The notes: generated by a model not told the origin, from the letters alone. Shown: positions 7,350 to 40,842, numbered from the whole stretch's first letter. The stretch is 62,112 nucleotides of DNA, filler included, from Caldilineae bacterium (GCA_037446815.1; 3 parts of 3 records of this genome joined end to end with filler, not necessarily neighbours in it); one strand, 5' to 3'. A program made the numbers and translations.

Positions 7350-7380
7350 AATTCGGTTCCACAGTCTGTTGGTATCTACG
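7350..7380. mobile_element. Solo MITE terminal inverted repeat
   Basis: AATTCGGTTCCACAGTCTGTTGGTATCTAC matches the ends of the elements at 38232-38382 and 40511-40685. Confidence 0.7.
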
Positions 7381-7423
7381 CTTTCATCTTGACCTCCTGT
7401 GTTGATATGGATTTGGGGAACGC

Positions 7424-7493
7424 GCCCAACGTTCGACAGCCGCCGCGCCGCTCAGCCGAGCGCCAAGCGGTCGGCTACAGCGAGTTGTTAGCC
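7424..7493 (-). other. Integron attC recombination site
   Basis: Minus strand GGCTAAC-AACTCGCTGTAGCCGACCGC...GCGGCGGCTG...-GTTGGGC; the TAA of the upstream gene lies inside the R'' box; imperfect palindrome. Confidence 0.75.
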
Positions 7494-7736
7494 CGCCGCC
7501 TTTTGTAAATATGCAAACTCTGCTATGGCTACCTGCCGCTTCGTTGCAAAACTCTGGCGATGAAGTTTGATGCGCTCAATCTCGTGCAACGTTTCCGCCG
7601 TAAAATAACTTTCACCGCAGTGGGGACAACTTACCAGCGGAATGTTCTCAATCACCAGCAGATCATCGCCTTTGCCATAACTGCGAGTCACATACCGAAT
7701 GCGCGCACCTTCTTTACCACAAATTTCGCAAACCAT
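7488..7736 (-). CDS. YgiT-type zinc finger protein (MqsA-like antitoxin)
   Basis: CEICG...IENIPLVSCPHCGESYF; low GC. Confidence 0.85.
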   Translation of the reverse strand: MVCEICGKEGARIRYVTRSYGKGDDLLVIENIPLVSCPHCGESYFTAETLHEIERIKLHRQSFATKRQVAIAEFAYLQKAAG

Positions 7737-7747
7737 TCTGTTTTCTC

Positions 7748-8029
7748 CTACAAACGGTACACTGTAATAATCACCAACTTGCCCGTGAGGCTGATTTTGC
7801 CAACCACTATGATGTCATCGTCTGCCACAGTTTTACCCTTGACCAGATACTTCCACTCACCTGTTTGAATGTCTTTCTGCCGCTCTACGATTTCGCCTGT
7901 CAGGATACCACGTTCCACATCAAAAATCGTCAATTCATCATCGCTCATTTCTTCTTCAGCGTGCAAAGTCATCACATATTGACGACCACGAACTTTGTCA
8001 CGCATTTGCTTCAAGATGCGTTGGAACAC
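7748..8029 (-). CDS. DUF4258 family protein (RelE-like putative toxin)
   Basis: 'TLHAEEEM...GEIVE...LVIITVY'; paired with YgiT; GTG start chosen (TTG at 8041 possible). Confidence 0.8.
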   Translation of the reverse strand: MFQRILKQMRDKVRGRQYVMTLHAEEEMSDDELTIFDVERGILTGEIVERQKDIQTGEWKYLVKGKTVADDDIIVVGKISLTGKLVIITVYRL

Positions 8030-8236
8030 TTCCTGCTCCAAATATCAAATGACGCCACAATAATGCCTTGTTTGACACGGTAAAGAAGGCGGGCCAGCTA
8101 TCTCCTATCCCGCACTCTGCTATCCGGACAGAATTCCGTACAATACGGCCCACACCCCGCGCTACACACCAGAGTCGCCGCGTATGCGAGCGCGAAACCT
8201 CTCGCGCGATACGCGCAGGGCAGCCCTTTTGTTCAT

Positions 8237-8264
8237 ATTATACGACACTCTGATGGAGAGTCAA
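8237..8264 (-). promoter_or_regulatory. Strong promoter facing the cassette (Pc-like)
   Basis: TTGACT-16 bp-TATAAT on minus strand. Confidence 0.6.
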
Positions 8265-8421
8265 GGGGTTTCAGGAATCACCGTTGCTCCGGCGCGGCGG
8301 CTGGCCGTGGCGCGGTTACCGCCGTGCGGGAGGCGAGCAGCAGCACAAGCAAGACAAAGAGAAGAGTCAGGTAGCGCGTGCTGGTTCTTCCTATTGATAT
8401 CGTAGCCGTGGCGATACGTAT

Positions 8422-9009
8422 CTACATTCCTTGAACCTTTGCTTCCTGTAGCGCGCGCTCCAGCAGGTCGCCAACCTGTAATTCAGTAGCCCAGTGGCGC
8501 AGATACTCCATGTCCAACATTTCGGCATGCACCTTCAAAATCCCCAAAACATCCCCCCACTGCCGCTCGGAAACTTCGCCGCCCAACCGATACCACTCCA
8601 GTTTGGAAAGAATCGTGTCTTCAGGGCTGGCAAATCTCGCGCCAACCTCGGTATCCAGGACGAACGTCTGCCTCTGGGCACGAGCCAGTTGGGAGCGCAA
8701 GAAGGGCCGCGGGTGGGGAATGAAGATATCCACCTTGAAAAAAGTCTCGCGGTGGATCATGTTGAAACTGGAACGGCGCTGAACCGCCTCGGCGATCAGA
8801 TCCACGTCCACATAGAATGCATCCTGCAATGCAGCGATGAAAGGCGGGATGTGCTCCGCGCGCATGTCGGCGACAATGTCGGCATCCTGGGTCAGGCGCA
8901 CCATACCGTAAAGCGTAGAGGCCAAAGAACCGCTGACAAAATACGGCACGCCGAGTTCCTCAAGAACGGTGGTAACCTTGAGGGTTACCTCAAGCGGTTC
9001 GTTGCGCAT
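8422..9009 (-). CDS. Nucleotidyltransferase-like toxin (MenT/AbiEii-like)
   Basis: 'YFVSGSLAS..YG.VRLTQDADIV', 'KVDIF', 'SPEDTILSKL'. Confidence 0.7.
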   Translation of the reverse strand: MRNEPLEVTLKVTTVLEELGVPYFVSGSLASTLYGMVRLTQDADIVADMRAEHIPPFIAALQDAFYVDVDLIAEAVQRRSSFNMIHRETFFKVDIFIPHPRPFLRSQLARAQRQTFVLDTEVGARFASPEDTILSKLEWYRLGGEVSERQWGDVLGILKVHAEMLDMEYLRHWATELQVGDLLERALQEAKVQGM

Positions 9010-9259
9010 CGGTGGTCTCCTCGCATACCTTGCGGGCCAGTTCCTCACCGAGTAGCAAGATTGCCCACTTGCGTCGCAGTTCGGCTTCGGTAGCGTGGGG
9101 ATACCGCGCCCGCAGGCCGGCCAGCGCCAGCAAGCGGGCGGCGACGTACAACTGCGCCAACATCTCCATCTTGCGGGTGGGGCTAACTCGCCGCAGCAGT
9201 CGGATTTGCAGCGCTTCGGCGGCAGGGTGACTATCCGAATGGATAATAGGGGTGCGCAT
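8990..9259 (-). CDS. Small helical cognate antitoxin (MenA1-like)
   Basis: 89 aa, overlaps the NTase start; 'RKMEMLAQLY...GLRARYPHATEAELRRKW'. Confidence 0.6.
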   Translation of the reverse strand: MRTPIIHSDSHPAAEALQIRLLRRVSPTRKMEMLAQLYVAARLLALAGLRARYPHATEAELRRKWAILLLGEELARKVCEETTDAQRTA

Positions 9260-9343
9260 GGCAGTTGCTCCTTCCTTCGGTTTGCTTCAGACCTCGCAAT
9301 CCATCCCTATCAGGAACGTTGCCCAGGCAAGTTCACCTGCTCT

Positions 9344-9793
9344 TCAGCCTAACTTGAGCATCCTCTCCCGAAACCAAGCCAGGAAATCGCCGGGCGGCCC
9401 AATCCGAAAGGGCAATTCGCCCGGTGAAGGGTTCAAGAAGTGCTGACGGTCATTCGTCAGAAACCAATCCGGGCGCGCCGCCATCGCTTCGGCCAGTACG
9501 AAAGCATCGGGCGGGTACCTGACCAACCGCCTGGCGCGCTCCAGATCGTCGGGGCTTGCATCGGGGCCGATCTGAATGCCGCTCGCGTCCAGTAGCAAAG
9601 CAAGATCGGGCAGGCTGTGGGCCGCCTTCCGGCGCGCGACCGCGTCGCACTCCCGCAGAACCCGTCTCCCGACCCATAGGTGCACGAGGCCGCTTTCTCC
9701 CAAACGGAGCACCATGCGCGCGCCTCCCTCCGGCGAAAGGATGGCGGCAAAAATAACGCTGGTGTCCAAGAACACTTTAGGGGGTGTACTCAC
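9344..9793 (-). CDS. PIN domain toxin (VapC-like)
   Basis: VFLDTSVIFAA...E...PDAFVLAEA...LTNDRQHF. Confidence 0.85.
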   Translation of the reverse strand: MSTPPKVFLDTSVIFAAILSPEGGARMVLRLGESGLVHLWVGRRVLRECDAVARRKAAHSLPDLALLLDASGIQIGPDASPDDLERARRLVRYPPDAFVLAEAMAARPDWFLTNDRQHFLNPSPGELPFRIGPPGDFLAWFRERMLKLG

Positions 9794-10031
9794 CGCGCAC
9801 CTCGCGCAGCGTTGTCAACATCGTTTCAAGGTCTAGCCCCTGCTCCTGCCACGCCTTTGCCAAACGATTGGCCAGGCGGTCGGTCTGAAGTTCTTTGGGG
9901 ATAAGAATGAGCACCCCATCCAGATCAACCAGCGTCATGATCTGGCCTTCTTGAATCTGGTTTTCCCTGCGCACTTCTGCGGGCAAGGTAATCACGCCTC
10001 GTTTTGCCACCTGGATCGGATAGATGGTCAT
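9777..10031 (-). CDS. AbrB/MazE/SpoVT family antitoxin
   Basis: 'IQVAKRGVITLPAEVRRENQIQEGQ'; GGAGG RBS; overlaps PIN gene. Confidence 0.85.
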   Translation of the reverse strand: MTIYPIQVAKRGVITLPAEVRRENQIQEGQIMTLVDLDGVLILIPKELQTDRLANRLAKAWQEQGLDLETMLTTLREVRGEYTP

Positions 10032-10054
10032 TGCGCACCTCCGATTATCTGCAA

Positions 10055-10094
10055 TTCTGAATATCAGGATAACACACATTCAGAACCCTGTCAA
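10055..10094 (-). promoter_or_regulatory. TA promoter with inverted-repeat operator
   Basis: TTGACA-17 bp-TATCCT straddled by TTCTGAAT...ATTCAGAA. Confidence 0.65.
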
Positions 10095-10190
10095 GTACCT
10101 TGCCCAGGTTGAACAAGGCGGGTTTGGGGGTCGCGCAGCCAGGCATCAGGCGACGGGGCGGCGGGGGTGCCGCGACGCGCCCCGCCGCCC

Positions 10191-12773
10191 TCACTCGCCC
10201 GCCCACACCACCGGCAGGCGAATCCAGTGCGACACCGGCACGCGCGTCGGCACAGGCGACGGCGTGGGCGTCGGGGCCAGCACCCGCGAATCCGCCCGCG
10301 CCGTGATCGCCAAGCACTCGGCGCAAGCCAGCACCACCGTGTTCGTGAACACCGACCCGCCCGCCAGCGACGAGCGCGTATGCGCCACGAGGCGAATCGT
10401 CCGCTCCTCGCCAGGCCCCAGCGTGCCCAGGTTCCAGGTAACGATGGGATTCCCCCACTGCCCCACTCCGCCGGAATCCGCGCTCACAAAATCCAGGCCC
10501 GGAGGCAGCGTATCCGTCAGCACAACCTGCGTAATCGCCACGCGGCGCAGATTCGTAACGGTGATGAAGTACCGCTGATTGTCGCCCGCGCGGATGGGAT
10601 CGTACAGGTCGCCCTTGAACAGGCGAGGGGCCGGAGCCGCGGTTCCTCCAAGGCCCCACACGGCATCGACGTAGGCATCGGCGGCAAACACATCCGCATC
10701 GCCGTCGTGATCCACATCGGCGGCGCCCACGTCCAGGGGCCACAGCCCGGCCTCGTAGTCCACGCGCCCGCCGAAGTTGCCCGCGCCGTCCCCCAGGAGC
10801 ACGCTCACGTCGCCCGACCCGCGATTCGCCGTAGCCACATCCAGCGCGCCGTCCCCGTCCACATCAGCCAGGACGATAGCCGTTGGGTCCTCGCCCACGG
10901 CGAACTTGCGCGCCGCGCCAAAGGACCCCGTTCCGCTTCCCAGCAGGATGCCCGCTTGCCCGGCATCTCGCAGCGCGATGGCCATGTCGGGAATGCCGTC
11001 GCCGTTGACATCGCCGACATCCAGCCCGCCAACCCGTCCGCCGGCGGGCACCGTGGAACTCACGAACGCGCCGCCCGACGTTCCCAGCAGCACCACGACC
11101 TGTTGCCCCGTCTCGCACCCGACCGCGGCATCCAGCGCCCCGTCGCGATTGAAGTCGGCGGCGGCGATGTGCCGAGGGTCCGGGCCGGTTGGGTACTGCT
11201 GCGCCCCCTCGTGCAACTCGCCGCTGCTCGCGCCAAACAGCACCCGCACGGCATCGGCAAACGTGTCGCCGACGAGGATATCGGCGTTGCCGTCGCCGTT
11301 GAAATCCCCCGCCGCCAGCCCCTCGGGCCACCCCGACACGAAATGCGCATGCGGCCCATCCCAGGCCCCGTCCGCCGCACCGAAGAAGACCCACACATCC
11401 CCGCTGCCCATGTTGGCAACGGCCACATCGGTCCGCCCGTCGTGATTGAAATCCGCCGTTGCGAGGGCAGAGGGATACGCGCCCGTGCCCAGGGTCGTCC
11501 AGGGATCAAGCCCGCCCACGCCCTTGCCCCGAAACAGCGTCAGCGTGCGGCTCTGGTTGCTCAGGGCCAGCGCATCCGCCCACGTGTCCCCGTCCACATC
11601 CGCGAGGCGCAGGGCAACAGGCCCGTCGCCGACCGCATATTTGCGCGCGGACGCCAGGCCGCCTTCCCCGTCGCCGAGGAAAAGCACAACCCGATCCCGC
11701 GCCGTGTCGGCCACGGCCACGTCCACCCACCCGTCGCCATTCCAATCTCCCACAGCCGCCGCCGATGGGCTTTGGCCCGCGGGCAAATGGTACGCGGAAC
11801 CCAACCCGCCGACTGCCGACGGGATAACCGACACCGTCTGCCCGGCCGCGTTGGCCGTTACGAAGTCCGGCAAGCCGTCGCCGTTCACATCGCCCACGGC
11901 CACGCCCGTCGGCCCCCGACCTGTCAGTGGGCACAAAGGCTCGGCAAAGCCGCCGTCTCCCAGACCCCGCCACCAGAAAAGGCGATCCGTGAGCGAATCC
12001 ACGGCGACAAGGTCCACGTGCCCATCCGCGTTCGCGTCTATCGCCATGAGGCCACGCATCCCGGGAGGCGCAAGCAGATCCCCTAACCGCGCAAACGCCC
12101 CGTGCCCCGTTCCGAGGAGCACGGTGATGTTGCTCGCGCTCGGATTGGCAACGGCCATGTCAGCGAGGCCGTCGCCGTCAAAGTCCGCGATGGCAAGTTC
12201 GCCCGCGCCCGCAGAAACGGGGATTACCCTTCCCGTCGCGAACGTGCCGTCGCCGTATCCGGTGAAGACAATCACCTCGCCTCTGTCGGGGACGGACACC
12301 ACCACATCCAAGCGCCCGTCCCCGCTCACGTCGGAGACCGCAAGGCCGGCGGGCAAACCGCTCAGCGGCAGGGACAGGCGCGGCGCAAAGGTGCCCGTCC
12401 CGCTGCCCTGGAGCACGCGCACCGCCTCCTCGGACTGGCCGATACACGCCGCATCGGGTCGGCCGTCGCCGTTGAAATCGCCCAAGGCCAGGGCGGACAG
12501 CGCGGGGCATGCGGGGGATGCCACAGGAGAGCCGAATGTCCCGTTGCCCAGGCCGCGCAGGAACACCACGCTATCGTCATCCCGCGCGCCCGCGACGATG
12601 TCCGCCTGCCCGTCGGTGTTGGCATCGCACCCCAGCAGGACGACCGGCGCGCGCCCAGCGGGAAAGTGCAGGGCCGCGGCCAGCACCGGCCGAGGGTTGG
12701 CCGCGCTGCTCTGCGAAACCGTCGCGCACACCACCGCCAGCAGGCACCCTAGCGCCACAATTCGGGACTTCAC
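10191..12773 (-). CDS. Secreted FG-GAP/VCBS repeat protein with C-terminal DUF11 domain
   Basis: Many 'GDFNGDG..D' repeats; GTG start after GGAGG; signal peptide; 'ITVTN...VVLTDTLPPGLDFV'; Pro/Thr linker. Confidence 0.9.
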   Translation of the reverse strand: MKSRIVALGCLLAVVCATVSQSSAANPRPVLAAALHFPAGRAPVVLLGCDANTDGQADIVAGARDDDSVVFLRGLGNGTFGSPVASPACPALSALALGDFNGDGRPDAACIGQSEEAVRVLQGSGTGTFAPRLSLPLSGLPAGLAVSDVSGDGRLDVVVSVPDRGEVIVFTGYGDGTFATGRVIPVSAGAGELAIADFDGDGLADMAVANPSASNITVLLGTGHGAFARLGDLLAPPGMRGLMAIDANADGHVDLVAVDSLTDRLFWWRGLGDGGFAEPLCPLTGRGPTGVAVGDVNGDGLPDFVTANAAGQTVSVIPSAVGGLGSAYHLPAGQSPSAAAVGDWNGDGWVDVAVADTARDRVVLFLGDGEGGLASARKYAVGDGPVALRLADVDGDTWADALALSNQSRTLTLFRGKGVGGLDPWTTLGTGAYPSALATADFNHDGRTDVAVANMGSGDVWVFFGAADGAWDGPHAHFVSGWPEGLAAGDFNGDGNADILVGDTFADAVRVLFGASSGELHEGAQQYPTGPDPRHIAAADFNRDGALDAAVGCETGQQVVVLLGTSGGAFVSSTVPAGGRVGGLDVGDVNGDGIPDMAIALRDAGQAGILLGSGTGSFGAARKFAVGEDPTAIVLADVDGDGALDVATANRGSGDVSVLLGDGAGNFGGRVDYEAGLWPLDVGAADVDHDGDADVFAADAYVDAVWGLGGTAAPAPRLFKGDLYDPIRAGDNQRYFITVTNLRRVAITQVVLTDTLPPGLDFVSADSGGVGQWGNPIVTWNLGTLGPGEERTIRLVAHTRSSLAGGSVFTNTVVLACAECLAITARADSRVLAPTPTPSPVPTRVPVSHWIRLPVVWAGE

Positions 12774-12910: not shown

Positions 12911-13016
12911 GACTCGGTTGCCATTCTGAGCGGCGGAGAGCGAAGAATCTCGCTCCTCACCCCAGCCCTCTCCCGAAGGGCGAGGGCGTTTCGCCTTAAA
13001 GAGATGGAACCGAGTC
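12911..13016. mobile_element. MITE-like element (106 bp)
   Basis: Ends GACTCGGTT...AACCGAGTC; internal palindromic repeat modules; no target duplication seen. Confidence 0.65.
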
Positions 13017-13031
13017 GCTGGAACAGCAGAA

Positions 13032-13061
13032 TTGACACGCCCCTATCGTCGCGTGTACAAT
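13032..13061 (+). promoter_or_regulatory. sigma70-type promoter
   Basis: TTGACA-18 bp-TACAAT upstream of the DUF1385 gene. Confidence 0.7.
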
Positions 13062-13096
13062 CCCCGCAGGTCAAGCACAAGGAGATTCGCGACAAC

Positions 13097-13993
13097 ATGT
13101 CTAAATACCACTACGGCGGCCAGGCGGTCATTGAGGGCGTCATGATGCGGGGGCGGCAACACATGGCCGTCGCGGTGCGCAAACCCGATGGCGACATCGT
13201 CCTCCACTCGGAGCCCCTCACCAGCAAGTTCCACACCAGCCGCGCCATGCGCCTGCCGTTCCTGCGGGGCATCGGCGTGCTGGTGGACACGGTGCTCCTC
13301 GGCATCCGCAGTCTCATGTTCTCCGCCGACGTCGCTCTGGGCGAAGAAGACGTGCAGTTCTCGGGGCCACTCGCGTGGGGCACGGTAGCCGTATCCTTCG
13401 CCCTTGCCATCGGCCTCTTCTTCGTCCTTCCGCTGGCGCTCGTCAACCTGGTGGACCGGTACATCGCCTCGGCCCTGGTCAGCAACATCGTTGAGGGCAT
13501 CGTCCGTCTCGGCATCTTCCTGGCATACGTCTGGGCCATCGGATTCATCCCCGACATCCAGCGCGTCTTTGCCTACCACGGCGCAGAGCACAAGACCGTG
13601 AACGCATACGAAAGCGGCGTGCCGCTCACGCCCGAGACGGTGCAAACGCACACGAAGGCGCACACGCGCTGCGGCACGGCGTTTCTGCTGGTCGTGGCCG
13701 TCATCTCCATCTTCGTCTTCGCGTTCTTGGGGCGCCCCTCGTGGCCGGTGCGGTACGCCTCCCGAATCCTGCTCATCCCCGTTATCGCTGGCCTGTCCTA
13801 CGAGTGGCTGCGGTTCTCGGCGAATCACCAGGATCAAGCGTGGGTCAGGTGGATTTCCGCGCCCGGCCTTGCGCTGCAACGCCTCACCACCCGCGAGCCC
13901 GACTCCAAGATGGTGGAAGTAGCCATCACGGCCCTGACGCGGGTATTGGATGAAGATGCCAAATCGGAGAGCGCGCCTCCAACTACCGGGTAA
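13097..13993 (+). CDS. DUF1385 domain membrane protein
   Basis: YGGQAVIEGVMMRG, YHGAEHK, HTRCGTAF, LQRLTTREP; AAGGAG RBS. Confidence 0.9.
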   Translation: MSKYHYGGQAVIEGVMMRGRQHMAVAVRKPDGDIVLHSEPLTSKFHTSRAMRLPFLRGIGVLVDTVLLGIRSLMFSADVALGEEDVQFSGPLAWGTVAVSFALAIGLFFVLPLALVNLVDRYIASALVSNIVEGIVRLGIFLAYVWAIGFIPDIQRVFAYHGAEHKTVNAYESGVPLTPETVQTHTKAHTRCGTAFLLVVAVISIFVFAFLGRPSWPVRYASRILLIPVIAGLSYEWLRFSANHQDQAWVRWISAPGLALQRLTTREPDSKMVEVAITALTRVLDEDAKSESAPPTTG

Positions 13994-20151: not shown

Positions 20152-20180
20152 TTGACAATGGTGCCCAGGCGGGGTACAAT
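20152..20180 (+). promoter_or_regulatory. Promoter of tRNA-Arg
   Basis: TTGACA-17 bp-TACAAT. Confidence 0.8.
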
Positions 20181-21037: not shown

Positions 21038-21137
21038 NNNNNNNNNNNNNNNNNNNNNNNNNNNNNNNNNNNNNNNNNNNNTTAATTAATTAANNNNNNN
21101 NNNNNNNNNNNNNNNNNNNNNNNNNNNNNNNNNNNNN
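21038..21137. other. Assembly gap with artificial linker
   Basis: N runs flanking TTAATTAATTAA (stops in all six frames). Confidence 0.95.
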
Positions 21138-21318
21138 GATTCTTCGCGGCTTCGCCGCTCAGAATGACAGTTGCGGGCGAGGGAGCGTGGCCTTCGGCTC
21201 AGCATGGAGAGAAACGGTATCCGCCGCCCGCGTCGTGCGTTACCAGCAGTGATACTGCGGGCCGCATGGACATGGCATGGCCGCCCGCGGCAGTCCGCGA
21301 TGATGCGAGAGCGCCGTC

Positions 21319-21469
21319 GATTCGGTTTCAAACTGTGTTGGTGAACCGTAGGCGTGCTCTCCTCGTGTGTCATTGCGAGCGAAGCGAAGCAATCGCACGC
21401 CCCGGACATTGCTTCGGGCGCTCCGCGCCCTCGCAATGACAAAACACCAACAGAATTTGGAACCGAGTC
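21319..21469. mobile_element. MITE (151 bp) with 8-bp target duplication GCGCCGTC
   Basis: GATTCGGTTTCAAACTGTGTTGGT...ACCAACAGAATTTGGAACCGAGTC; duplication at 21311-21318 and 21470-21477. Confidence 0.85.
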
Positions 21470-21484
21470 GCGCCGTCGGCGGGG

Positions 21485-21513
21485 TTGACAGATACGGGGC
21501 GGTATGCTAGAAT
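21485..21513 (+). promoter_or_regulatory. sigma70-type promoter
   Basis: TTGACA-17 bp-TAGAAT with extended TG. Confidence 0.8.
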
Positions 21514-21519: not shown

Positions 21520-21706
21520 AGGGTTCCCAAGTAGGCATGGCTTTCGACGCGGCCTGTCCGTCTCCCGCGGCTAGGCAGATTCGTCGGCACACCATCGCAG
21601 CAGTGCGGCCCTGGTACCCCCAACGGGGGCCGTGCCAACGTGCCTTACGCGCGGAGACCAACCCTGCGGGATAGCGCGAACCAGCGGGGTTGGTTCGTTT
21701 GTATTT
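21520..21706 (+). ncRNA. Candidate structured RNA or attenuating leader
   Basis: Begins just after a consensus promoter, can fold into an irregular rod, ends in ACCAACCCTGC/GCGGGGTTGGT hairpin plus T-rich tract. Confidence 0.4.
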
Positions 21707-21774
21707 GGGGCCTTTGCCCAGACCCGGCTCCAGGGGCCAGTGAAGTGAGAGACGTCTGTTCCAAACCGAAGAAC

Positions 21775-24700
21775 ATGCACACCCCCAATGCGCGGAAAGG
21801 GCTGACCCTGGTCGCCACGATCATCGGCATGGCGGCGCTTCTGGCTGCCTGGGCGTTTCCGCTCGCCATCATGAGCAGAGCCGCCCCTTCGCAGGTCTGG
21901 GTGGACGACGATTATTCCCCTGCAACGCCGGGCTGGGGCGTTACCCACTTCGCGGCCATTCCCCCCGCGCTGGCCGCAGTCGCCGAAGGCGGCGAGATCA
22001 CTGTGGCGCCGGGCCGCTACGCCGCGCCCATCACCATCAGCAAGCGCGTAACCCTCCGCGGCGCGGGTCGCAGCGCCACCACCTTGTACGCCACGTCCGG
22101 CACCGCGCTGACGCTGGCCGCCCCCGGCATCACCGTGGACGGGGTCGGCCTCGTCAACGAGAGCGCGGCCGCAACGGGCGTTCGCATCACGGGCGACCAG
22201 TGCACCTTGCAGAACTCGCGCATCGCGGGCTTCCTCGCCGAAGGCGTCTTCGGCACCGCGTCCCAGCAGACCGTCATCCTGGCCAACGACATCGCCGACA
22301 TCCGCGGCGAGGGCGTGTACATCCAGGGCACGCGCTTCGCCACCGTGTCGTACAACCAGTTCCTCCGAGTTCAAGGCACGGCCCTGTCCTTGGAGCAGGG
22401 CACCTACTCCCTGTTGTCGTATAACGACATCAGCAGCGCCGACGCGCCCGATCAGTGGGGCATCGCCATCCTCGGCGGGTCGGAGAGCAACACGATTACC
22501 CAGAACCGCATTCACGACAACAGCCTGGCCGGGGCCATCCTCGTGGCGGGCCGCAACAACACCCTGCGCGAGAATACCATCGCGGCCAACACCGGCGACG
22601 GCATCCGCCTGGTGGGCGGGGCCAACGGCTGCACCGCGGACGGCCAGACCATCACCGGCAACGGACGCCGGGGGATCGCCCTGGTTGGCTCCCCGCTCTC
22701 GTCGGTCCAGATTGTCAACAACAAGATCATCGGCAACGGGTTCGCGCTCGGCGAGCCCGCTCTCCTCATAGAGAGCGCGACCGCCTGCACCCTGCACGGC
22801 AACCAATTCTCGGGCAACGCCAAACCCGCGCGGGACGACGGGGCCGGGAACGTCTGGTACAGCGCCGCGAGCCGCCTGGGCAACTTCTGGGACAACTACG
22901 CCGGCGCCGATGCCAACCTGGACGGCATCGGCGACACGCCCTACGCCGTGGACGGCACCGCCCGCGCTGTGGATGCCTACCCCGTGCTCCTGATGTCGCT
23001 GCGCGCCGAGCCTTCCAGCATCGGCGCCGATGCCAACGCCTACAGCCTCCTCACGGTTTCCCTCCGCGATATCCAACTCCATCCCATCAGCGGCGGGCAG
23101 GTCGTCTTCGGGACCAACGTGGGGCATTTCGTCAACGGGACGAGCATGTACACCGCCACGGTGCAGGACGGCGCGGCGTCGGCCAGACTCTACCCCGACG
23201 GCACGCCCGGCACGGCCACCGTGGTGGTCAGCGACACCTTGCGCGGGTTGAGCGTGTCGGGGCAGGTCTTCTTCGCGCCGTGCGGATACCAGACCTGGCA
23301 GGAGCCGACGGACAACCCGCTGTTCACCATCGCCAACGGCGACGCCGCCGCGCCATGGGTGCTCTTCAACCCGGCGTGGAGCACACCTTACCGCATGTGG
23401 TACTCTACCGCCTCCGGCATCGCTTACGCCGAGTCCTACGACGGGCTGGCTTGGGTCCAGAAGGGCTTGGTAACCGGCCTGAGGAACGCGCGGCAGGGGC
23501 GCGTGCTGTACGACCCCGAAGGATTCGGCGGCGGCGCGCATTTCCGCATCTGGTATCGCGACGCCAACCTCGCCTTCCTGCCGTCTGCCATCCGCTACGC
23601 CGAATCCGAGAACGGCCTCGCCTGGACCAACGACCAGGCCATCACCCAGGACCCCATCAACCCGCTGGTAACCGGCACGCCGGGGTGGAACCGCGGAACG
23701 CTAGGCCCCTCGGCGGTGCTGTACAATCCGTCGGCGGGGAACTCTGGCTCCGACCCGCGCGACTACCGATTCGTGATGCTGTACGACGCCACCGATGGCA
23801 ACACGCGCACCCTCGGCCTGGCCTATTCCGACGACGGCCTGAGGTGGACCGGCTTGAGCGCGCCGGTGCTCGTCCCAGGTCCCCCTGGCGGCTGGGACAG
23901 CGGCCATGTGGGTTTGGCCAGCGTCATCCTGGGCGGCGACGGCGTGTACCGCATGTGGTACTCCGGCGGCCAGGACTCGGTCGCGGAAGGCATCGGCTCG
24001 GCCGTGTCCACGGACCTGGTGCACTGGACGCGGCTCGGTGGCACCGCCCCTCTTTGGGCTGTGGGGCGAAAGGGAGCACCGGGCAGTTGGAATGCGGATG
24101 GGAACTTCGCTCCGGCCGTCGTGTTCAGCGCCGGCCAGTTTGAGGGCAAAGGGCCTGCCGCCTTCTACAAGATGTGGCGGCTGGGCCTGCGCGGCCAGAA
24201 TGCTTACGCCGTGGGCTACGCTCAGTTGAACCCTGCGGGCAGCCTGACCCTGGTCTCCGGCGATGGGCAGGCGGCGCAGGTCGGCGCCACCCTACCCAAT
24301 CCCCTCGTCGTCCGGGTGCGCGATGCATGCGGCAATCCCATCTCGGGCGTGCCGGTGCGGTTTGCCGTGGAGACGGCGCCCGCGGGCGCGCAGGACTACC
24401 AATTCTCCGCCCCCAGCGCCTTCACCGATTCCGACGGGTTTGCCCGAACCGCGTTCACCTTCGGCCTGCAGGTCGGGCTATACCAAATCACTGCTTCCGT
24501 CCCCGGGGCCAGCGGCTCGCCCGTGCGGTTCAATGCGACGGCCACCGGCGGCTCCCCGGCATCGGTGCGGCTGGGCGCGGACCCCACCGCTGTGGAGGTG
24601 GGCGGGCAGCGCGCCAGGCTCATCGCCATCGTAACGGACAGCAGCGCCAATCCCGCCCCCGACGGGACGGTCGTAACCTTTGAGACCGACCACGGCTCCT

Positions 24701-26043
24701 TTGACACCGGAACCCGCTACATCACGGGAACCGTCGGCGGTCAGGCGGTCGCGTATCTCCTGTCCAGCACGCAAGTGGCCACGGCGACCGTGCGCGCGCA
24801 GGTAGTGGGGGATTCCGACGCCATTCGCATCCAGTTCGTGCCAGGCCCGCCCGCGGCCATCAGCGGCGACGCCGACCCGCCGGTCGTGCCCGTGGGCGGC
24901 GAGGCCACCCAGGTGCGCGCCCGCATCACCGACCGCTTCGGCAACCTCGTCGCTGACGGCACGACGGTTACGTTCACCACAGACCTGGGGCATTTCGGCG
25001 GCTCCGCCACCATCACGGCGACCACCACTGGCGGCCAGGCATCCGCCACCCTGTACTCCGCGAACGCGGCAGGCACGGCCACCGTCGGCGTGCGATCCGG
25101 CCCGTCGGCCTATCGCGCCGTCTACGTTACCTTCGTGCCCGACGCGCCCGCAGACTTAGCCCTGTCCGCCGACCGCACTCGCATCGCCGTTGGCGGCCAG
25201 AGCGCCGAACTGGCGGCGCGGGTTACCGACCGATTCGGCAATGCGGTGTCCGATGGCACCCTGGTAACGTTCTCCACAGACCTGGGCCTGGTGAACGGCG
25301 GCACCGTTGCCGTCGCCACGACAACAGGCGGCACGGCGCGCATCCATCTCACGTCGGGCATGACCACCGGCACGGCGCACGTCCGCGCCGAATCCGGAGC
25401 AGGCGCCGACGAGATCACGGTGGAGTTTTACAACGCGCTCTCGGTGCAGAACGACCCCTGGCAACCCACTATCTGCGCGGGAAAGCCCTTGCGGTTCACC
25501 ATCACCGTGGAGAACACCGGAGACACCCTCCTGACCAACGTCCTTGTGCGCGATGTGCTCCCCAGCGGGGCCTTCTTCTCGGCCTATGGGTCCAGCCCGG
25601 GCTATCAAATCTTCTCCGACCGCGAGGTGGGATGGCGGCTGGAGTCGCTGGGCGCCCATTCCCGAGGCACGCTGTACCTGGAGGTAGTTACCGCATCGTA
25701 CCTGACGGAGGGGAGCACCATCACCAACACCGTGCGGGTGAGCGCCGCGGAAGCGCCCGAAGCGGTCGCCTATTCCACGGTGCGGGTGCAATGCGTCCAG
25801 GAGACGCCATCGCCCACACCCACGCGCACGCCGACGGCGACAGCGTCGCAGACCCCCACGCCCACGCGCACGCCAACGGCCACGCTGACGCCGTCGCCCA
25901 CCCCTACGCGCACGCCAACGGCGACAGCGTCGCTGACCCCCACGCCCACGCGCACGCCCACCGCCAATCCTGGGCCCACGGCGACGCGCGTCCCGGCCCG
26001 TTACCGGCTGGCCCTGCCCTTCATCCGCGTCGCGCGGCCCTGA
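21775..26043 (+). CDS. Large secreted protein: beta-helix (NosD-like), beta-propeller, Ig-like (Big_1) repeats, DUF11, Pro/Thr linker
   Basis: [22 protein letters not shown]; repeated YRMWY/AYSDDG..W; repeated 'TD.FGN.V.DGT.VTF.TDLG'. Confidence 0.85.
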
Positions 26044-32032: not shown

Positions 32033-32310
32033 GCATCTCGCCCGACCTCTCCCCTCGGCCTCCCCGGGGGTGAGGTGCGCACCACTCGCGCGAGATTCTT
32101 CGCGGCTTCGCCGCTCAGAATGACAGCAGGTCTTGTGTCATGCTGAGCCGAAGGCGAAGCATCTCGCCCGACCTCTCCCCTCGGCCTCCCCGGGGGTGAG
32201 GTGCGCACCACTCGCGCGAGATTCTTCGCGGCTTCGCCGCTCAGAATGACAGCAGGTCTTGTGTCATGCTGAGCCGAAGGCGAAGCATCTCGCCCGACCT
32301 CTCCCCCTCG
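32033..32310 (+). repeat. 126-bp tandem direct repeat (about 2.2 copies) of palindromic modules
   Basis: Identical units start at 32033, 32159 and 32285. Confidence 0.9.
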
Positions 32311-32417
32311 TTCCCCTTCTCCGCCCGCGGAGAGGGGGAGGCCGAAGGCCGGGGTGAGGTGCGCATGACCACCTCGGGAGATTGCTTCGGGCACTGCGTG
32401 CCCTCGCAATGACGGCT

Positions 32418-32441
32418 ACCAACAGACTTTGGAACCGAATT
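32418..32441. mobile_element. Solo MITE terminal inverted repeat
   Basis: ACCAACAGACTTTGGAACCGAATT. Confidence 0.7.
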
Positions 32442-32457
32442 CCGGGCCCACGTCCGC

Positions 32458-32486
32458 TTGCAGCCACGCGCCTCTCTTCATATAAT
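32458..32486 (+). promoter_or_regulatory. sigma70-type promoter
   Basis: TTGCAG-17 bp-TATAAT. Confidence 0.7.
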
Positions 32487-32519: not shown

Positions 32520-32918
32520 ATGCCAATCTACGAATACCGATGCCATGACTGCAGGCGGCGTGTATCCATCCTGTGGCGCTCGCTCTCGGAAGCGGAATCG
32601 GGCGAGGCCCGCTGCCCGCGCTGCGGCGGAACGCGCCTGACCCGATTGGTCTCGCGGGTGGCCGTGCTCCGCTCCGAAGAGGCGCGCCTGGACGCCCTCA
32701 TGGACACCGACGGCCTGGGAGACCTGGACGAGAACGACCCGAAGAGCATCGCCCGCTGGATGCGCAAGATGAGCAAAGAAATCGGCGAGGACGCAGGCGA
32801 AGAGTTTGAGGAGGTCGTTGGCCGCCTGGAGGCCGGCCAGACCCCCGAACAGATTGAGCAGGAGATGCCCGACCTGGGGCTGGGCGGTGCCGACGACGCT
32901 TCCATAGACACCGACTAG
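32520..32918 (+). CDS. FmdB family zinc ribbon protein
   Basis: MPIYEYRCHDC...CPRCG...RLVSR. Confidence 0.9.
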   Translation: MPIYEYRCHDCRRRVSILWRSLSEAESGEARCPRCGGTRLTRLVSRVAVLRSEEARLDALMDTDGLGDLDENDPKSIARWMRKMSKEIGEDAGEEFEEVVGRLEAGQTPEQIEQEMPDLGLGGADDASIDTD

Positions 32919-33972: not shown

Positions 33973-35563
<1,591 letters not shown>

Positions 35564-35567
<4 letters not shown>

Positions 35568-36553: not shown

Positions 36554-36620
36554 TCCTCTGCTCGGAGGCGGGGCATGCGCGCGGCAGGATGGGATGGTGC
36601 GGTCGCGGCACGAGCGAATG

Positions 36621-37208
36621 CTACGCTTCCGTCCTCTCTCCGGTCATCCTCACAAAGTACTGGTGGAACCGCAGGTCATCCGTCAGTTCCGGGTGGAAGG
36701 CTGTTGCCAGCAGGTTGCCCTGGCGCGCCGCGACGATGGCCCCGTCCGACAGCCGCGCCAATACCTGCACCCCCAGCCCCACCCGCTCAATCAAGGGCGC
36801 ACGGATGAAGATGGCCCTGAACGGCATATCGCCACCCAGTTCCGGCACGTCCAGCAACGTCTCAAAACTATCCACCTGACGGCCAAATGCATTGCGCCGT
36901 ATGGTTACATCCATCAGCCCGATGAGCGGCTGCGCCAATCCGCCGATGTCCCGGGCCAGCAGGATCATCCCCGCGCAGGTGCCCCAGACCGGCCACCCAG
37001 AGGCGGCCCGTGCGCGTATCGGCTCAATCAGCCCGTAGGTTACCGCCAGTTTGCCGATGGTGGTACTCTCACCGCCCGGGATGATGAGGCCCGACAGCCC
37101 CTCCAACTGCTCCGGAAGGCGGACTTCGCGGGTGTCCACGCCCAGCCGTTCCAGGGCCTTGCGATGCTCAATGAATGCCCCCTGCAATGCCAGCACGCCG
37201 ATTGTCAT
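36621..37208 (-). CDS. pdxT: PLP synthase glutaminase subunit
   Basis: GVLALQG, PGGESTT, GTCAG, RNAFGRQ, FHPE. Confidence 0.97.
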
Positions 37209-37250
37209 AGGCGACCCTCTGCCCCGTGTTGTCTGCGATGGTGTGTTGGG

Positions 37251-38141
37251 TTACCAGCCGCGCCCCGCCAGGAGTTGTTCCTGCGGGATGGCGCCGATTT
37301 CCAGGCCGGGCATCGCCTCGCCCAGGCCCTTGGACACCTCGGCGATGATCTTCGGGTCGTTGTAGTGCGTTGTAGCCTCTACGATGGCCTTGGCCCGCCG
37401 GGCCGGATCGCTGGACTTGAAGATGCCGGAACCCACGAAGACGCCGTCCATCCCCAGTTGCATCATCAGCGCGGCGTCGGCCGGGGTCGCGATGCCGCCC
37501 GCGGCGAAGTTGACCACGGGAAGCCTGCCCAATTGCGCCACTTCCTTCACGAGTTCGTAGGGCGCGCCCATCTCCTTGGCGGCCTTCATCAGTTCCTCCG
37601 GCGCCATGGACGTGAGACGACGGATCTCGCCCATGACGGCGCGCGCGTGTCGCACGGCCTCCACCACGTTGCCGGTGCCCGCCTCGCCCTTGGTGCGGAT
37701 CATGGCCGCGCCCTCGGCGATTCGGCGCAGCGCCTCGCCCAGGTTGCGGCACCCGCAGACGAAGGGCACCTTGAACTGGTGCTTGTCAATGTGGTGCTCC
37801 TCATCGGCGGGCGTGAGCACCTCCGACTCGTCAATGTAGTCCACGCCCAGCGCCTCCAGCACCTGGGCCTCCACGAAATGCCCGATGCGGCACTTGGCCA
37901 TGACCGGGATACTTACGGCGTCCATGATCTTGAGAATCAACTCCGGGTCGCTCATGCGGGCGACGCCGCCGTGCGCCCGAATGTCGGCAGGGACGCGCTC
38001 CAGTGCCATCACCGCCACCGCGCCGGCGTCCTCGGCGATTCGGGCATGCTCGGGCGTTACCACGTCCATAATCACGCCGCCTTTGAGCATCTGAGCCAGG
38101 CCGCGCTTTACCGCCACTGTGCCCGTATCTCTCGGCTCCAT
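37251..38141 (-). CDS. pdxS: PLP synthase lyase subunit
   Basis: [39 protein letters not shown]. Confidence 0.97.
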
Positions 38142-38187
38142 GTCTTCATACCTCCATACCGCTGATTCTTGCTCCCGTTTCTAGCCT

Positions 38188-38216
38188 ATTCTATACGCAT
38201 TGAACACCGTTGACAA
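38188..38216 (-). promoter_or_regulatory. pdxS promoter
   Basis: TTGTCA-17 bp-TAGAAT on minus strand. Confidence 0.7.
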
Positions 38217-38231
38217 GTCTCCGCCACAAGG

Positions 38232-38382
38232 GACTCGGTTCCATCTTGTGTTGGTCTGCCCCGCGCGCCGCCTCTCCACTTTGTCATGCTGAGCCGAAGG
38301 CGAAGCATCTCGGTCAGCGAGATTCTTCGCGGCTTCGCCGCTCAGAATGACGGTAGATGCCAGCGGACTTTGGAACCGAGTC
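38232..38382. mobile_element. MITE (151 bp) with 8-bp target duplication CCACAAGG
   Basis: GACTCGGTTCCA...TGGAACCGAGTC; duplication at 38224-38231 and 38383-38390. Confidence 0.88.
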
Positions 38383-38584
38383 CCACAAGGACACACCGCG
38401 GGGGCGCAGAAGGCGCAGAGGGCACAGACCGCGGGCCATTCTCAGCGTCGCGGGGCTAAAGCCGCCGCGCTAAGGGTAGCACGGGGCGGCGCGTCCGGCC
38501 TGCCCGCTCGCGGAGGGGGCGGGCACGAAGGCGAGGTCGGGCGGGTGGCTTCCCTTCGCCCGCAATGACGGATGGGTGCAACGT

Positions 38585-38609
38585 GCGACGCGCCTCGGAG
38601 GTGCGTCGC
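38585..38609. repeat. GACGCRCCTCGGAGGTGCGTC hairpin repeat
   Basis: Second copy at 44106-44140. Confidence 0.6.
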
Positions 38610-38762
38610 GCGTTCCCCTTCGCGCGGATTCGCGGTTACAAGAACTGTCATTCTGGGCGGCGAAGCGCGGACGAATCTCGCGTCCCCATTCGTGTTATCT
38701 GTGGATACACACGGCCCGCTTTGCCCCATCAGGACAGCAGAACGCGCAGACCGCGCAGGAGC

Positions 38763-40430
38763 CTAGGGCGTGGGCGTCGGCGTGGGCGTGCGCGTGCCCG
38801 CGAGCCACACGAAACTGCGCGGGGCGCTCTCCGCGCCGGCGGCAGGCCATAGGTCCGCGTTGCCCGGAATCCCCTCGCTGACCCGCACCCGCACGCTCAC
38901 GCTCCAGTACAGCCGTCCCGACGGCGGTCGCAACAGCCAGACGTAGGCGGGCACCTGCCACTGGGTGTCGCGGGTAACGCCTACCTCCTCGCCCCGCTCG
39001 TGGGGAATGCGCACCACGTACCACTCGTCATCGGCCAGCGGCCCCACATCCGTCCAGCGCAGGACGATGGCCTCCTGAGGCTCAAAATGCATCTCGTTGG
39101 GCGGCGCCAAGAGCGTGGGTGCGGGATGCAGCGCGCGCGTCGGCGTGGGGGTGGGCGGCTGGGGCGTGGCCGTGGGCGCGGGGGTCCACGTGGACGTTGG
39201 CGGGGGCGGCGTCGGCGTGTCGGTCGGCGCGGTCGTCGCCGTCGGCGTGTCCGCTGGCTGCGGCGTATCCGTCGGCGCGACCACCACGGGCGCCGTGGCC
39301 GTGGGCGCGGGCGTGGGGGGCTGGGTGGGACGAACGGTGGGCGTAGCCGTCGCGGGCGGCGAGGCGACGGGCCTGGGCCGTGTCAACGCCCAGATGCCCC
39401 CGCCGATGAGTGCGACAGATGCGGCCAGCGCCAGGATGGCGGCGCCGTACCGACGCCTGGCTGTCCTGCGCGGCCGCGCCGATGGCATGGCGGCTTCGGG
39501 CGACTCCCCGCCCAGCACGCGGGTAGCCCTGCGGAGCCATTGGCGCGCCTCGGCGTCCTTGGGGTTCAGGCGCAGGGCGTGGCCAGCCAGTTCGGCGACC
39601 CGGTCCCACTGACCGAGACGGGCCGCCGCGCGGGCCTGTTGCGCCAGCGCCTGCGCCCGCCGTCGCTGCTCCTGGCGACGGCGACGGCGACTTTCGCGCG
39701 GGGGTGGCCCCGCCGTCTGCGCGGCCTGCACGAAAGCATCGCTGAACTCGCGGAAATCCGCGAAAGCCTTGCCCTCGTACCCCACCCCGCGCATGAGGAC
39801 GCGCCACATCTCCGGCCCCAGGCGGTCCTCGGCCCGCCGCCAGGGGATGCCCGGGCGGCGCATGGTGGCGTCGGTGCGGGAGAAGGGCGCGCCCACCACC
39901 ATCTCGTGCGCCAGGTTCGCCAGCGCCTCCGTATCCTTCTCCGGCGTGTGGGTCCCCAGCGCCATGCCGAAATCCAGCACGGTTACCTGATCGTCGTCGC
40001 TGAGCCAGATGCTGCGGTCCTGCAGGTTGCCGTGGGAGAGCCAGCGCTCGTTGAGGTACTGGAGCGCGTCCGCGATTTGGCTGACGATGAAGGCGGCCCG
40101 CAGGGGGAAGATGGGGCTTTCGGCGCGCAGGCGGTCGGCCAGGGTAACGCCTTCCGCCGGACGGAAGGACAGAAACGGCAGCCCTTCGGCCTCGCCGACT
40201 TCGTAGACCTGGGGCAGGTTGGGGTGGCTGAGGCTTGAGGCCAGGCGCGCGGCGCGCTGGAACTGCTCCGCGGTCGCGGGGTCTGACGCCAGGTCGCCAT
40301 CCAGCACCCGCACCCACACGTCGCGGTCGTAGTGGGTGTCGTGGGCGCGGTAGATGGTGCCAAATCCGTCGCGCAGCACCACACCGCGCAGTTCATACCG
40401 TCCAAATTGGCGCGGAAACGTCTCGGCCAT
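38763..40430 (-). CDS. Membrane Ser/Thr kinase-like protein (probable pseudokinase) with Pro/Thr linker and extracellular domain
   Basis: Hanks-type N-lobe and DFG present, catalytic motifs degenerate; one TM helix. Confidence 0.75.
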   Translation of the reverse strand: MAETFPRQFGRYELRGVVLRDGFGTIYRAHDTHYDRDVWVRVLDGDLASDPATAEQFQRAARLASSLSHPNLPQVYEVGEAEGLPFLSFRPAEGVTLADRLRAESPIFPLRAAFIVSQIADALQYLNERWLSHGNLQDRSIWLSDDDQVTVLDFGMALGTHTPEKDTEALANLAHEMVVGAPFSRTDATMRRPGIPWRRAEDRLGPEMWRVLMRGVGYEGKAFADFREFSDAFVQAAQTAGPPPRESRRRRRQEQRRRAQALAQQARAAARLGQWDRVAELAGHALRLNPKDAEARQWLRRATRVLGGESPEAAMPSARPRRTARRRYGAAILALAASVALIGGGIWALTRPRPVASPPATATPTVRPTQPPTPAPTATAPVVVAPTDTPQPADTPTATTAPTDTPTPPPPTSTWTPAPTATPQPPTPTPTRALHPAPTLLAPPNEMHFEPQEAIVLRWTDVGPLADDEWYVVRIPHERGEEVGVTRDTQWQVPAYVWLLRPPSGRLYWSVSVRVRVSEGIPGNADLWPAAGAESAPRSFVWLAGTRTPTPTPTP

Positions 40431-40463
40431 GTCGCCCCCATCGCACTGCGGCAACGCGGGCGC

Positions 40464-40493
40464 ATTCTAGCACAGAACGCGGGAGACGCGCAA
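40464..40493 (-). promoter_or_regulatory. Promoter of kinase-like gene
   Basis: TTGCGC-18 bp-TAGAAT with extended TG. Confidence 0.55.
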
Positions 40494-40510
40494 GCGCGGA
40501 CGCGGAGCGG

Positions 40511-40685
40511 GATTCGGTTGCAAACTGTGTTGGTCTGTCCCGCGCGCCGCCTCCCCACTCTGTTATGCTGAGCCGAAGGCGCCGCTCCCTCGCCCTTCGG
40601 GAGAGGGCCGGGGTGAGGGGCGAGATTCTTCGCGGCTTCGCCGCTCAGAATGACAGTGGATGCCAACAGACTTTGGAACCGAGTC
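40511..40685. mobile_element. MITE (175 bp) with 9-bp target duplication GCGGAGCGG
   Basis: GATTCGGTTGCAAACTGTGTTGGT...CCAACAGACTTTGGAACCGAGTC; duplication at 40502-40510 and 40686-40694; degenerate older end follows at 40694. Confidence 0.88.
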
Positions 40686-40842
40686 GCGGAGCGGGCTCCG
40701 TTCCATCGGGTGTTGGTGTGGGGTAAGAACACACGGCAGAGGCGCAGAGGTTGGACGATTCTCCGCCCGTCTCTCCGGTGCAAGGCCCCTTCCCTTGCCC
40801 GAAACGCCCTTCCGTGGTAGGATGGCCCCAACGGAGGGCGTC

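Follow-up and report, generated by a model that had tools for sequence, protein, structure and literature searches.

A family of short repeated elements with shared inverted ends was found in a 62,112-nt stretch of DNA (filler included) from a Caldilineae bacterium (GCA_037446815.1); the whole of this stretch is hereafter referred to as the window, and positions are counted from its first base. We give a probability of about 0.85 to the interpretation of these elements as miniature inverted-repeat transposable elements (MITEs), the non-coding derivatives of a family of insertion sequences (ISs) of ~1.5 kb that encodes a Mutator-type transposase and inserts at a fixed point upstream from sigma-70-type promoters. 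The position of insertion relative to the promoter is precise to ±1 bp and, among the matches listed, the family is almost confined to Chloroflexota.

Shared ends, target duplications and promoters in the window

The 12-mer GAYTCGGTTCCA occurred 20 times in the window with up to two mismatches, as against 8.63 ± 3.12 times in 100 shuffled sequences, none of which reached 20. A 24-nt model of the end (GAYTCGGTTNCAnnnTnTGTTGGT, up to three mismatches) identified 10 ends, at 11 (+), 7350 (+), 21319 (+), 21469 (−), 32441 (−), 38232 (+), 38382 (−), 40511 (+), 40685 (−) and 40694 (+). Overall, the window holds four two-ended elements, which are non-coding and 106–175 bp long, and four solo ends (11, 7350, 32441 and 40694). 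Inverted ends of ~24 bp lie on both sides of 21319–21469, 38232–38382 and 40511–40685, and three of the four two-ended copies have exact target duplications of 8 or 9 bp abutting these ends. Small size, lack of coding capacity, terminal inverted repeats and target duplications are among the features by which MITEs are recognized. No transposase was detected in the window in tblastn searches with four transposases of the family (best E value 0.67). When folded as single strands, the elements form long hairpins (z = −6.2, −4.5 and −3.75).

Six of the element ends, when read outward, are followed after 15–17 bp by a TTGACA-like box and then, after 17–18 bp, by a TATAAT-like box, and all six of these promoter-like sites face a gene or a tRNA within ~10–130 bp. 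On the plus strand, the end at 13016 lies 15 bp from TTGACA-18-TACAAT (13032–13061), facing a DUF1385 gene (ATG at 13098), the end at 21469 lies 15 bp from TTGACA-17-TAGAAT (21485–21513), facing the gene for a 1467-aa Big_1/beta-helix protein (21640–26043), and the end at 32441 lies 15/16 bp from TTGCAG-17-TATAAT (32458–32486), facing a Zn_ribbon_8 (FmdB-like) gene (ATG at 32520). On the minus strand, the end at 7350 is followed after 15–16 bp by TTTGCA-18-TATCAT, or TTGCAT with a spacer of 17 (7305–7334), facing tRNA-Gln (7293–7221), and the end at 38232 is followed after 15 bp by TTGTCA-17-TAGAAT (38188–38216), facing pdxS (38141–37251). A weaker site with 8 of 12 matches, TTGCGC-18-TAGAAT (40464–40493, minus strand), lies 17 bp from the end at 40511 and faces a kinase-like gene (40454–38763). 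No promoter-like site was found at the four opposite ends tested (12911, 21319, 38382 and 40685). An independent and stricter promoter scan of positions 7000–46999 returned 12 sites, four of which (7334−, 13032+, 21485+ and 38216−) begin at a distance of exactly 15 bp from the end of an element. Both orientations are represented, as it is the "AAAGTCTG...GTCATT" end that adjoins the promoter in the case of 21469 and 32441, and the other end in the case of 38232 and 40511.

The individual elements differ in their state of preservation. Those at 21319–21469, with 24-bp inverted ends, and 38232–38382 are both 151 bp long and are flanked by the 8-bp duplications GCGCCGTC (21311–21318 and 21470–21477) and CCACAAGG (38224–38231 and 38383–38390), respectively. 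The second of these elements separates the end of the kinase-like gene from the promoter of pdxS, and several of the elements are located between convergent or tandem genes. The 175-bp element at 40511–40685 is similar to the 38232 copy, with an extra nested module, and is flanked by the 9-bp repeat GCGGAGCGG (40502–40510 and 40686–40694). The last G of the repeat copy ending at 40694 is also the first base of a degenerate older end (40694–40717, plus strand, three mismatches in 24 positions), which abuts the duplication of the newer copy. The newer copy thus targeted the bases abutting the older end, such that the two ends came to lie 17 and 16 bp, respectively, from the same −35 box: one promoter-defined site has been hit twice. 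The fourth two-ended element (12911–13016), of 106 bp, has lost all but the outer 12 nt at either end, around an interior consisting of a nested hairpin module, and its flanks carry no target duplication. The end at 11–34 (plus strand) has two mismatches to the 24-nt model, and its outer flank is cut by the start of the window. No partner end was found to the right of the solo inverted-repeat end at 7350–7373 (plus strand). The remaining solo end (32418–32441) terminates a 409-bp block of tandem hairpin modules (32033–32441) made up of two identical 126-bp copies and a partial third, with no element end on the left.

The initial annotation of this DNA had described a non-autonomous repeat family with shared inverted ends, three clean target duplications and a repeated hit at 40694, and the 24-nt model, the shuffles, the duplications read directly from the sequence, the tblastn search and the configuration of the two adjacent copies bear out each of these statements. 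It had also placed the ends of six elements 15–17 bp from outward-facing promoters; the spacing was recovered, but 7350 and 32441 are solo ends rather than the ends of whole elements.

Two larger units were considered and rejected. A composite transposon of 5.7 kb with 7350 and 13016 as its ends was discarded on the grounds that the flanking 8-mers differ (TGGGGCGC versus GCTGGAAC), and a single element of 2454 bp (38232–40685) on the grounds that its flanks differ and each of the small elements has its own duplication.

Strong consensus promoters without an adjoining element are also present in the window (20152–20180, 8237–8264 and 10066–10094), including, for example, a TTGACA-17-TACAAT site before tRNA-Arg. 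Good promoters are not, therefore, all occupied by elements.

Members of the family in other genomes

A scan of 185,579 species-representative genomes for the end pattern yielded at least 72 loci, to which all the figures given below for elements in other genomes refer. We retained 53 loci as members of the family and, among the matches listed, 52 were labelled as Chloroflexota, Anaerolineae, Caldilineales or Chloroflexia. The remaining family locus, L015 (JACQVT010000365.1), is located on a 3.3-kb contig from a bin labelled Planctomycetota. It is a typical member of 131 bp, with the duplication CAGCAACG and a promoter-like site 14 bp away, and reflects either a host range extending beyond Chloroflexota or a mis-binned contig. 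Nineteen of the 72 loci, from Flavobacteriaceae and their relatives, Methanoculleus and others, were set aside as chance matches on the basis of record titles and flanks. These 19 include L034, labelled Chloroflexia but AT-rich, and also L004, L039, L052 and L062, which have nearly the same flanking sequence, taken to represent a conserved gene.

Pairing of the ends, with the four elements of the window included, gave 31 elements. A perfect in-register duplication of 8 bp was found for 12 of these 31 end pairs, and two more had a 9-bp repeat or a shifted 7-bp repeat; the usual duplication is 8 bp. Most of the paired elements are 116–257 bp long, and several reach ~1.5 kb. Four full-size copies (L024, 1522 bp; L058, 1528 bp; L003, 1520 bp; L014, 1548 bp) each contain one open reading frame (ORF) of 427–437 aa, and partial or damaged copies were found at L020, L033, L036, L042/L043 and L060. 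Across genomes, the miniature copies have their ends alone in common, their interiors being unrelated.

Two further loci display unusual configurations. At L054, a degenerate end lies 13 bp from an intact end (2023/2037), and at L057 (2001–2140) promoters are present at both ends, without a duplication. These arrangements provide hints of repeated hits and of recombination between copies.

Fixed promoter distances across genomes

We assessed promoter association in a sample of 85 non-redundant ends of the family, nine of them from the window, after the removal of duplicate flanks and of ends with less than 50 nt of flank. A promoter-like site was defined as at least nine of 12 matches to the E. 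coli-type consensus within 30 bp. Such sites were found at 33 of the 85 ends and at 200 of 20,000 random positions (1%) in the same DNA. The distances to the −35 box were bimodal. In the lower mode, one end lay at 2 bp, two at 3 bp, three at 4 bp, six at 5 bp, two at 7 bp, one at 8 bp and one at 9 bp; in the upper mode, one lay at 13 bp, three at 14 bp, 11 at 15 bp and two at 16 bp. None of the ends listed had a distance of 10–12 or 17–30 bp. The two modes account for 16 of 85 ends at 2–9 bp (binomial p = 1.6e-24) and 17 of 85 at 13–16 bp (binomial p = 1.4e-30 for the 13–17 bp bin), whereas the hits at random positions were evenly spread over the offsets. The positional peak, which does not depend on the random control, was also significant, with 17 of the 33 hits falling in five of the 31 offsets (p = 2.8e-6). 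Promoter-like sites were observed at two of the 19 ends set aside as not belonging to the family.

Scored by itself, the −10 box gave a still clearer result. For 86 ends, −10-like hexamers were found at offsets 37–39 (19 hexamers), 27–28 (ten) and 30–31 (four), and none was found at offsets 0–22. A −10 box was present in 23 of the 31 end pairs, at exactly one end in 21 of them and at both ends in two, for a random rate of 1.07%. A subset of 26 hand-picked ends from the ~15-bp class had the −10 box at an offset of 36–41 in 22 cases; in 10 of these 22, the −35 box matched the consensus at three or fewer of its six positions, often together with an extended −10 TG. No consensus among copies was seen in the promoter spacers or in the 15 bases separating the end from the −35 box.

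The spacing is a property of the genome and is constant within each genome. A spacing of ~14–17 bp was found in the window, KM4338-54, the Tomsk Anaerolinea bin, HOT.MB2.62, A05DMB-I-30, bin12 and NC_groundwater_1470, a spacing of ~7–8 bp in MFD05942.bin.2.46 and at one end in SMAG_U14156, and a spacing of ~4–5 bp in CSMAG_2311, MAG048, the BQF170218 Caldilineales bin and SRP192927_co7_575. Where the spacing is short, the 8-bp target either touches the −35 box or extends into it, and the duplication restores the box (L049, L070, L058 and L064). The full-size copies obey the same rule, with distances of 15 bp (L014), 7 bp (L058), 5 bp (L020) and 4 bp (L042). The promoter targeting suggested by the initial annotation for the window is thus upheld by a fixed distance that recurs in unrelated genomes far beyond chance expectation.

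The transposase

All four full-length transposases matched the Mutator family model of Pfam (PF00872), with 25.1–36.0 bits for a cutoff of 21. The best matches in NCBIfam were to IS256 (NF033543; 31.7–42.5 bits, below the cutoff of 150) and, far below the cutoff, ISH6; models of small N-terminal zinc-binding domains were also matched. None of the four matched the NCBIfam models for ISLre2 (NF033529) and ISKra4 (NF033572) at E ≤ 1. The ISKpn19 transposase (plasmid CP031373), used as a positive control, scored 381.5 bits on the ISKra4 model and 53.9 on the ISLre2 model, with no Pfam hit, PF00872 included. A profile comparison with ISKpn19, which belongs to the ISKra4 family, revealed a remote similarity over the region extending from the zinc finger to the second aspartate (68.7% probability, E value 4.5e-5).

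In an alignment of 11 full-length members, C28, C31, C62 and C65 (zinc ribbon), D170, D233, H257 and E353 were invariant, and C254 was nearly so. The putative catalytic residues were assigned by alignment position. D233 and E353 are separated by 120 aa, a stretch that is largely helical in the structural model and of a length within the 99–138 aa of the criterion for the superfamily, and the C254-x2-H257 motif lies 21 aa past D233, for a published range of 11–19 aa (PMC3942029). The arrangement is of the Mutator type described in that paper. The ends of the elements (5'-G...C-3', ~24 bp), with duplications of 8 bp and in one case 9 bp, also fit the Mutator criterion of 18- to 39-bp repeats with a terminal C. 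The best match of the AlphaFold model in the Protein Data Bank (PDB) was the transposase of ISCth4, of the IS256 family (E value 3.7e-7). A phmmer search against PDB sequences identified no meaningful relative, and the family profile reached an E value of only 0.08 (ISCth4).

An exhaustive HMMER search recovered 414 representative clusters (50% identity) at E ≤ 0.001, 292 at E ≤ 1e-10 and 103 at E ≤ 1e-30; the clusters listed include many fragments, together with full-length members down to ~30% identity. A word-indexed search gave 1615 hits among 8000 scored candidates, and many of the hits listed were on contigs of ~1.5 kb, with names that, where given, were mostly "transposase-like protein". 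No match to the transposase was obtained by tblastn against 72,556 plasmids. With the PF00872 cutoff passed and no curated family model satisfied, the enzyme is, from its sequence, a divergent DDE (Asp-Asp-Glu) transposase of the Mutator superfamily claimed by none of the curated families. The initial annotation had called for an autonomous IS with the same ends, which the copies of ~1.5 kb encoding this transposase in other genomes provide. It had also proposed a Mutator-like enzyme of the ISLre2/TnGBS type generating duplications of 8–9 bp; the superfamily and the duplications stand, whereas the assignment to ISLre2/TnGBS does not, given the lack of a match to either the ISLre2 or the ISKra4 model at E ≤ 1.

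Relationship to known elements

Promoter-upstream targeting is in itself already known from TnGBS/ISLre2 and the ISKra4 group. TnGBS and ISLre2 (p-MULT 3) insert 15–17 bp upstream from the −35 box of promoters in a fixed orientation (Guerillot et al. 2014, PMC3942029), and share with the present family this distance, a Mutator-superfamily DDE transposase and duplications of 8–9 bp. They differ from it in having a single orientation, with the right inverted repeat (IRr) beside the promoter, and in being almost entirely confined to Firmicutes, according to PMC3942029 and a 2022 survey (PMC9208149). The present family, by contrast, occurs in both orientations and in Chloroflexota hosts, and is not matched by the ISLre2 model. 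Unusual distances between IS and gene are noted for ISLre2 and ISKra4 in the 2022 survey.

For the ISKra4 group, promoter-upstream insertion has been described for 13 ISs, in both orientations, because the inverted repeats are nearly perfect (PMC3942029); the criterion used in Fig. 2 of that study was a distance of 13–17 bp from the junction between inverted repeat and genome. The group thus resembles the present family in its integration at a constant distance from sigma-A promoters, its near-perfect repeats, its duplications of 8–9 bp and the occurrence of promoters at either end. It has an N-terminal CxxC region, with a weak alignment to the present transposases. The two differ in that the curated ISKra4 model is not matched by the present transposases, PF00872 is hit by the latter and not by ISKpn19, and spacing classes of 4–5 and 7–8 bp are not described in PMC3942029. 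In PMC3942029, promoter targeting is linked to a sequence signature lying between domains N1 and N2 of the ISKra4-group transposases. On the tests run, the present family behaves like the ISKra4 group but is probably not a member of it.

The IS256 family (p-MULT 1; ISCth4 structures 6xg8, 6xgw and 6xgx) has in common with the present family PF00872, the best NCBIfam and structural matches, a size of ~1.3–1.5 kb, duplications of 8–9 bp and a C(2)H motif after the second aspartate. The present transposases nevertheless score only 32–42 against the cutoff of 150 and have an extra N-terminal zinc ribbon, and the family targets promoters, whereas IS256 was found to insert without regard to promoters (PMC3942029). 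Eukaryotic Mutator elements, Pack-MULEs and the yeast element Ty3, the analogies drawn in the Discussion of PMC3942029, likewise prefer the 5' ends of genes or the regions in which transcription starts, and Pack-MULEs are non-autonomous derivatives; however, these elements have eukaryotic hosts and depend on chromatin or Pol III factors, with no base-pair ruler from a sigma-70 promoter.

The main text of PMC3942029 contains neither "MITE" nor "miniature", and its sole use of "nonautonomous" concerns eukaryotic Pack-MULEs. No report of promoter-targeting MITEs or of this Chloroflexota family was retrieved from the literature searched. Three aspects of the family appear to be new, namely its lineage of transposase, its miniature derivatives and its short classes of spacing.

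Proposed mode of insertion and alternative explanations

In the scenario that we favour, the transposase would bind the ~24-bp inverted ends and would presumably mobilise the miniature copies in trans, from a full-size copy probably located elsewhere in the source genome. By comparison with relatives of the IS256 type, the route may be copy-out/paste-in via a circle (PMC3942029). Integration generates a duplication of 8 bp, sometimes 9 bp, and the target in the window extends from about −50 to −43, leaving the end 15–17 bp from the −35 box. The promoter remains intact and points away from the element, either end of which may lie beside it. It would be sensed by the docking of the transposase on the promoter-bound RNA polymerase holoenzyme, rather than through a DNA motif; docking is favoured because, among ends of the ~15-bp class, the offset of the −10 box is maintained even for poor −35 boxes. 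The docking idea proposed for TnGBS fits these data, without being proven by them. The 4–5-bp class, with its near-consensus −35 boxes, could equally read the −35 box directly.

Several observations weigh against this interpretation. The promoters of the window are consensus matches, and two of the six (32441 and 40511) are missed by the stricter scan, since only three of the six positions of their −35 boxes match. Across genomes, 17 of the 31 end pairs lack a perfect in-register duplication, and L012, L024, L026 and L050 have no convincing promoter at either end, even though two of them have perfect duplications. The 1% rate at random positions comes from a control that includes coding DNA, and a comparison with intergenic DNA alone would yield a lower enrichment. 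The spacing classes are based on one to 12 loci per genome, the 62-kb window of the source genome contains no full-size copy, and the AlphaFold model of the transposase is mediocre (predicted local distance difference test score, pLDDT, of 64.8).

Could insertion be random, with only those harmless intergenic copies that lay upstream from promoters surviving selection? A bias towards intergenic survival is general for ISs, and the four end pairs without a promoter at either end would be expected under such a model, which involves no targeting. Selection is, however, unable to set a distance to ±1 bp or to place −10 boxes at offsets 37–39 or 27–28 and, among the ends listed, never at 0–22. Nor does it account for a spacing that varies among genomes and is constant inside each, or for the hitting of one window promoter twice at the same position. 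Survival bias alone is insufficient to generate a genome-specific ruler with base-pair accuracy, and we consider this explanation highly unlikely. Still less credible is a promoter carried by the mobile unit itself, as a promoter cassette or through the creation of a −35 box by the element, despite the overlap of the target with the first three to four bases of the −35 box in the 4–5-bp class (L049 and L070). Because the inverted ends are immediately flanked by the duplications, the promoter is external to the element, and neither the bases between the end and the −35 box nor the promoter spacers are conserved between copies; furthermore, all but two of the 31 pairs have a promoter at no more than one end. 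The position of the duplication between end and promoter, together with the unrelated flanks, excludes an element-borne promoter.

An alternative account, in which the transposase belongs to a known promoter-targeting family (ISLre2/TnGBS or the ISKra4 group) and nothing is new, is improbable in our view. The behaviour is the same as that reported in PMC3942029, the wider p-MULT 4 family, which includes the ISKra4 group, has been reported from several phyla, Chloroflexi included (PMC3942029), and there is the profile similarity to ISKpn19. Against this stand the absence of any match at E ≤ 1 to NF033572 or NF033529, both of which are matched by the ISKpn19 control, the restriction of the curated matches to IS256, ISH6 and PF00872, the last of which ISKpn19 does not hit, and the IS256-type nature of the nearest solved structure. 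The recruitment of the mobile copies for regulation, whether as hairpins insulating the promoter from read-through or as binding sites ~50 bp upstream for a transposase-derived factor, to give two examples, seems about equally doubtful. It would be in keeping with the constant position of the ends relative to the promoter, the folding of all the elements into long hairpins and the location of several of them between convergent or tandem genes. Nothing requires it, however: interiors are unrelated between genomes, with the ends alone conserved, both orientations occur, and the window contains no candidate factor.

Promoter-targeting MITEs of a Mutator-type IS family therefore remain the preferred interpretation, and a bolder version of it may be put forward tentatively, as possible rather than probable. 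The family might constitute a third branch of the Mutator superfamily with promoter-upstream targeting, separate from ISLre2/TnGBS and ISKra4, with lineage-specific rulers (~15–16, 7–8 and 4–5 bp) and a transposase docking on the holoenzyme. If this were true, the miniature copies would amount to an atlas, at base resolution, of the working promoters of uncultured Chloroflexota, and the natural ruler variants would make it possible to dissect the sensing of promoters by a DDE transposase.

Promoter-upstream targeting is among the few sequence-independent "safe-haven" strategies of bacterial transposons. To our knowledge, its mechanism is unsolved, and contact with RNA polymerase has been proposed but not demonstrated. 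The present case adds a compact new transposase lineage, miniature copies that multiply the informative insertion sites and natural variation in spacing, thereby rendering the question of targeting more tractable. The elements also flag likely promoters in Chloroflexota, a phylum in which we know of few mapped promoters, and they explain contig breaks in assemblies of this kind.

Assembly, hairpin modules and other features of the window

The G+C content of the window is ~65%. Artificial contig joins, consisting of N linkers enclosing TTAATTAATTAA, are present at 21038–21138 and 42161–42261, and a third run of N is present at 43678–43776. The linkers indicate that the window consists of three contigs of a draft assembly, and gene order across the joins is therefore no proof of linkage. 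Contig 2 both starts (21139) and ends (42160) within copies of a hairpin module; such repeats thus break the assembly. A scan of the whole window against Rfam at gathering thresholds identified two tRNAs only, with no RNA family on the elements.

The hairpin modules form a separate family (GTCATkSyGAGC...GCTCAGAATGAC), often with an inner GGGGTGAGG/CCCTCTCCC hairpin. They were found at 21139–21206, 32033–32410, 38644–38682, 42104–42160 and 55217–55252, and inside the miniature elements, and thus occur both with and without transposon ends; 32033–32284 corresponds to the two identical 126-bp tandem copies. In another genome, the miniature element of L028 is filled by a module of similar type.

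Inside the solo end at 7350, the region 7374–9800 has a lower G+C content (0.57–0.59) and contains ORFs without a Pfam family (7560–7868, and 8422–9048 or 8494–9093) and a PIN-domain gene (9344–9793). This region may be the remnant of a larger insertion. A second island of lower G+C content (42262–44188; 0.55, versus ~0.65 elsewhere) is located at the start of contig 3. It contains an RNase H ORF on the minus strand (42990–43430) and a 40-nt segment present three times (42326, 42841 and 43455), with spacings of 515 and 614 bp, which suggests tandem paralogues or foreign DNA. Finally, short-period coding repeats (12/18/42-nt, rich in CAC, GCC and GAC) occupy positions 25803–25990, in the C-terminal region of the 1467-aa surface-type protein, and a GC-rich repeat in the kinase-like gene (38768–39319) looks complementary to them.

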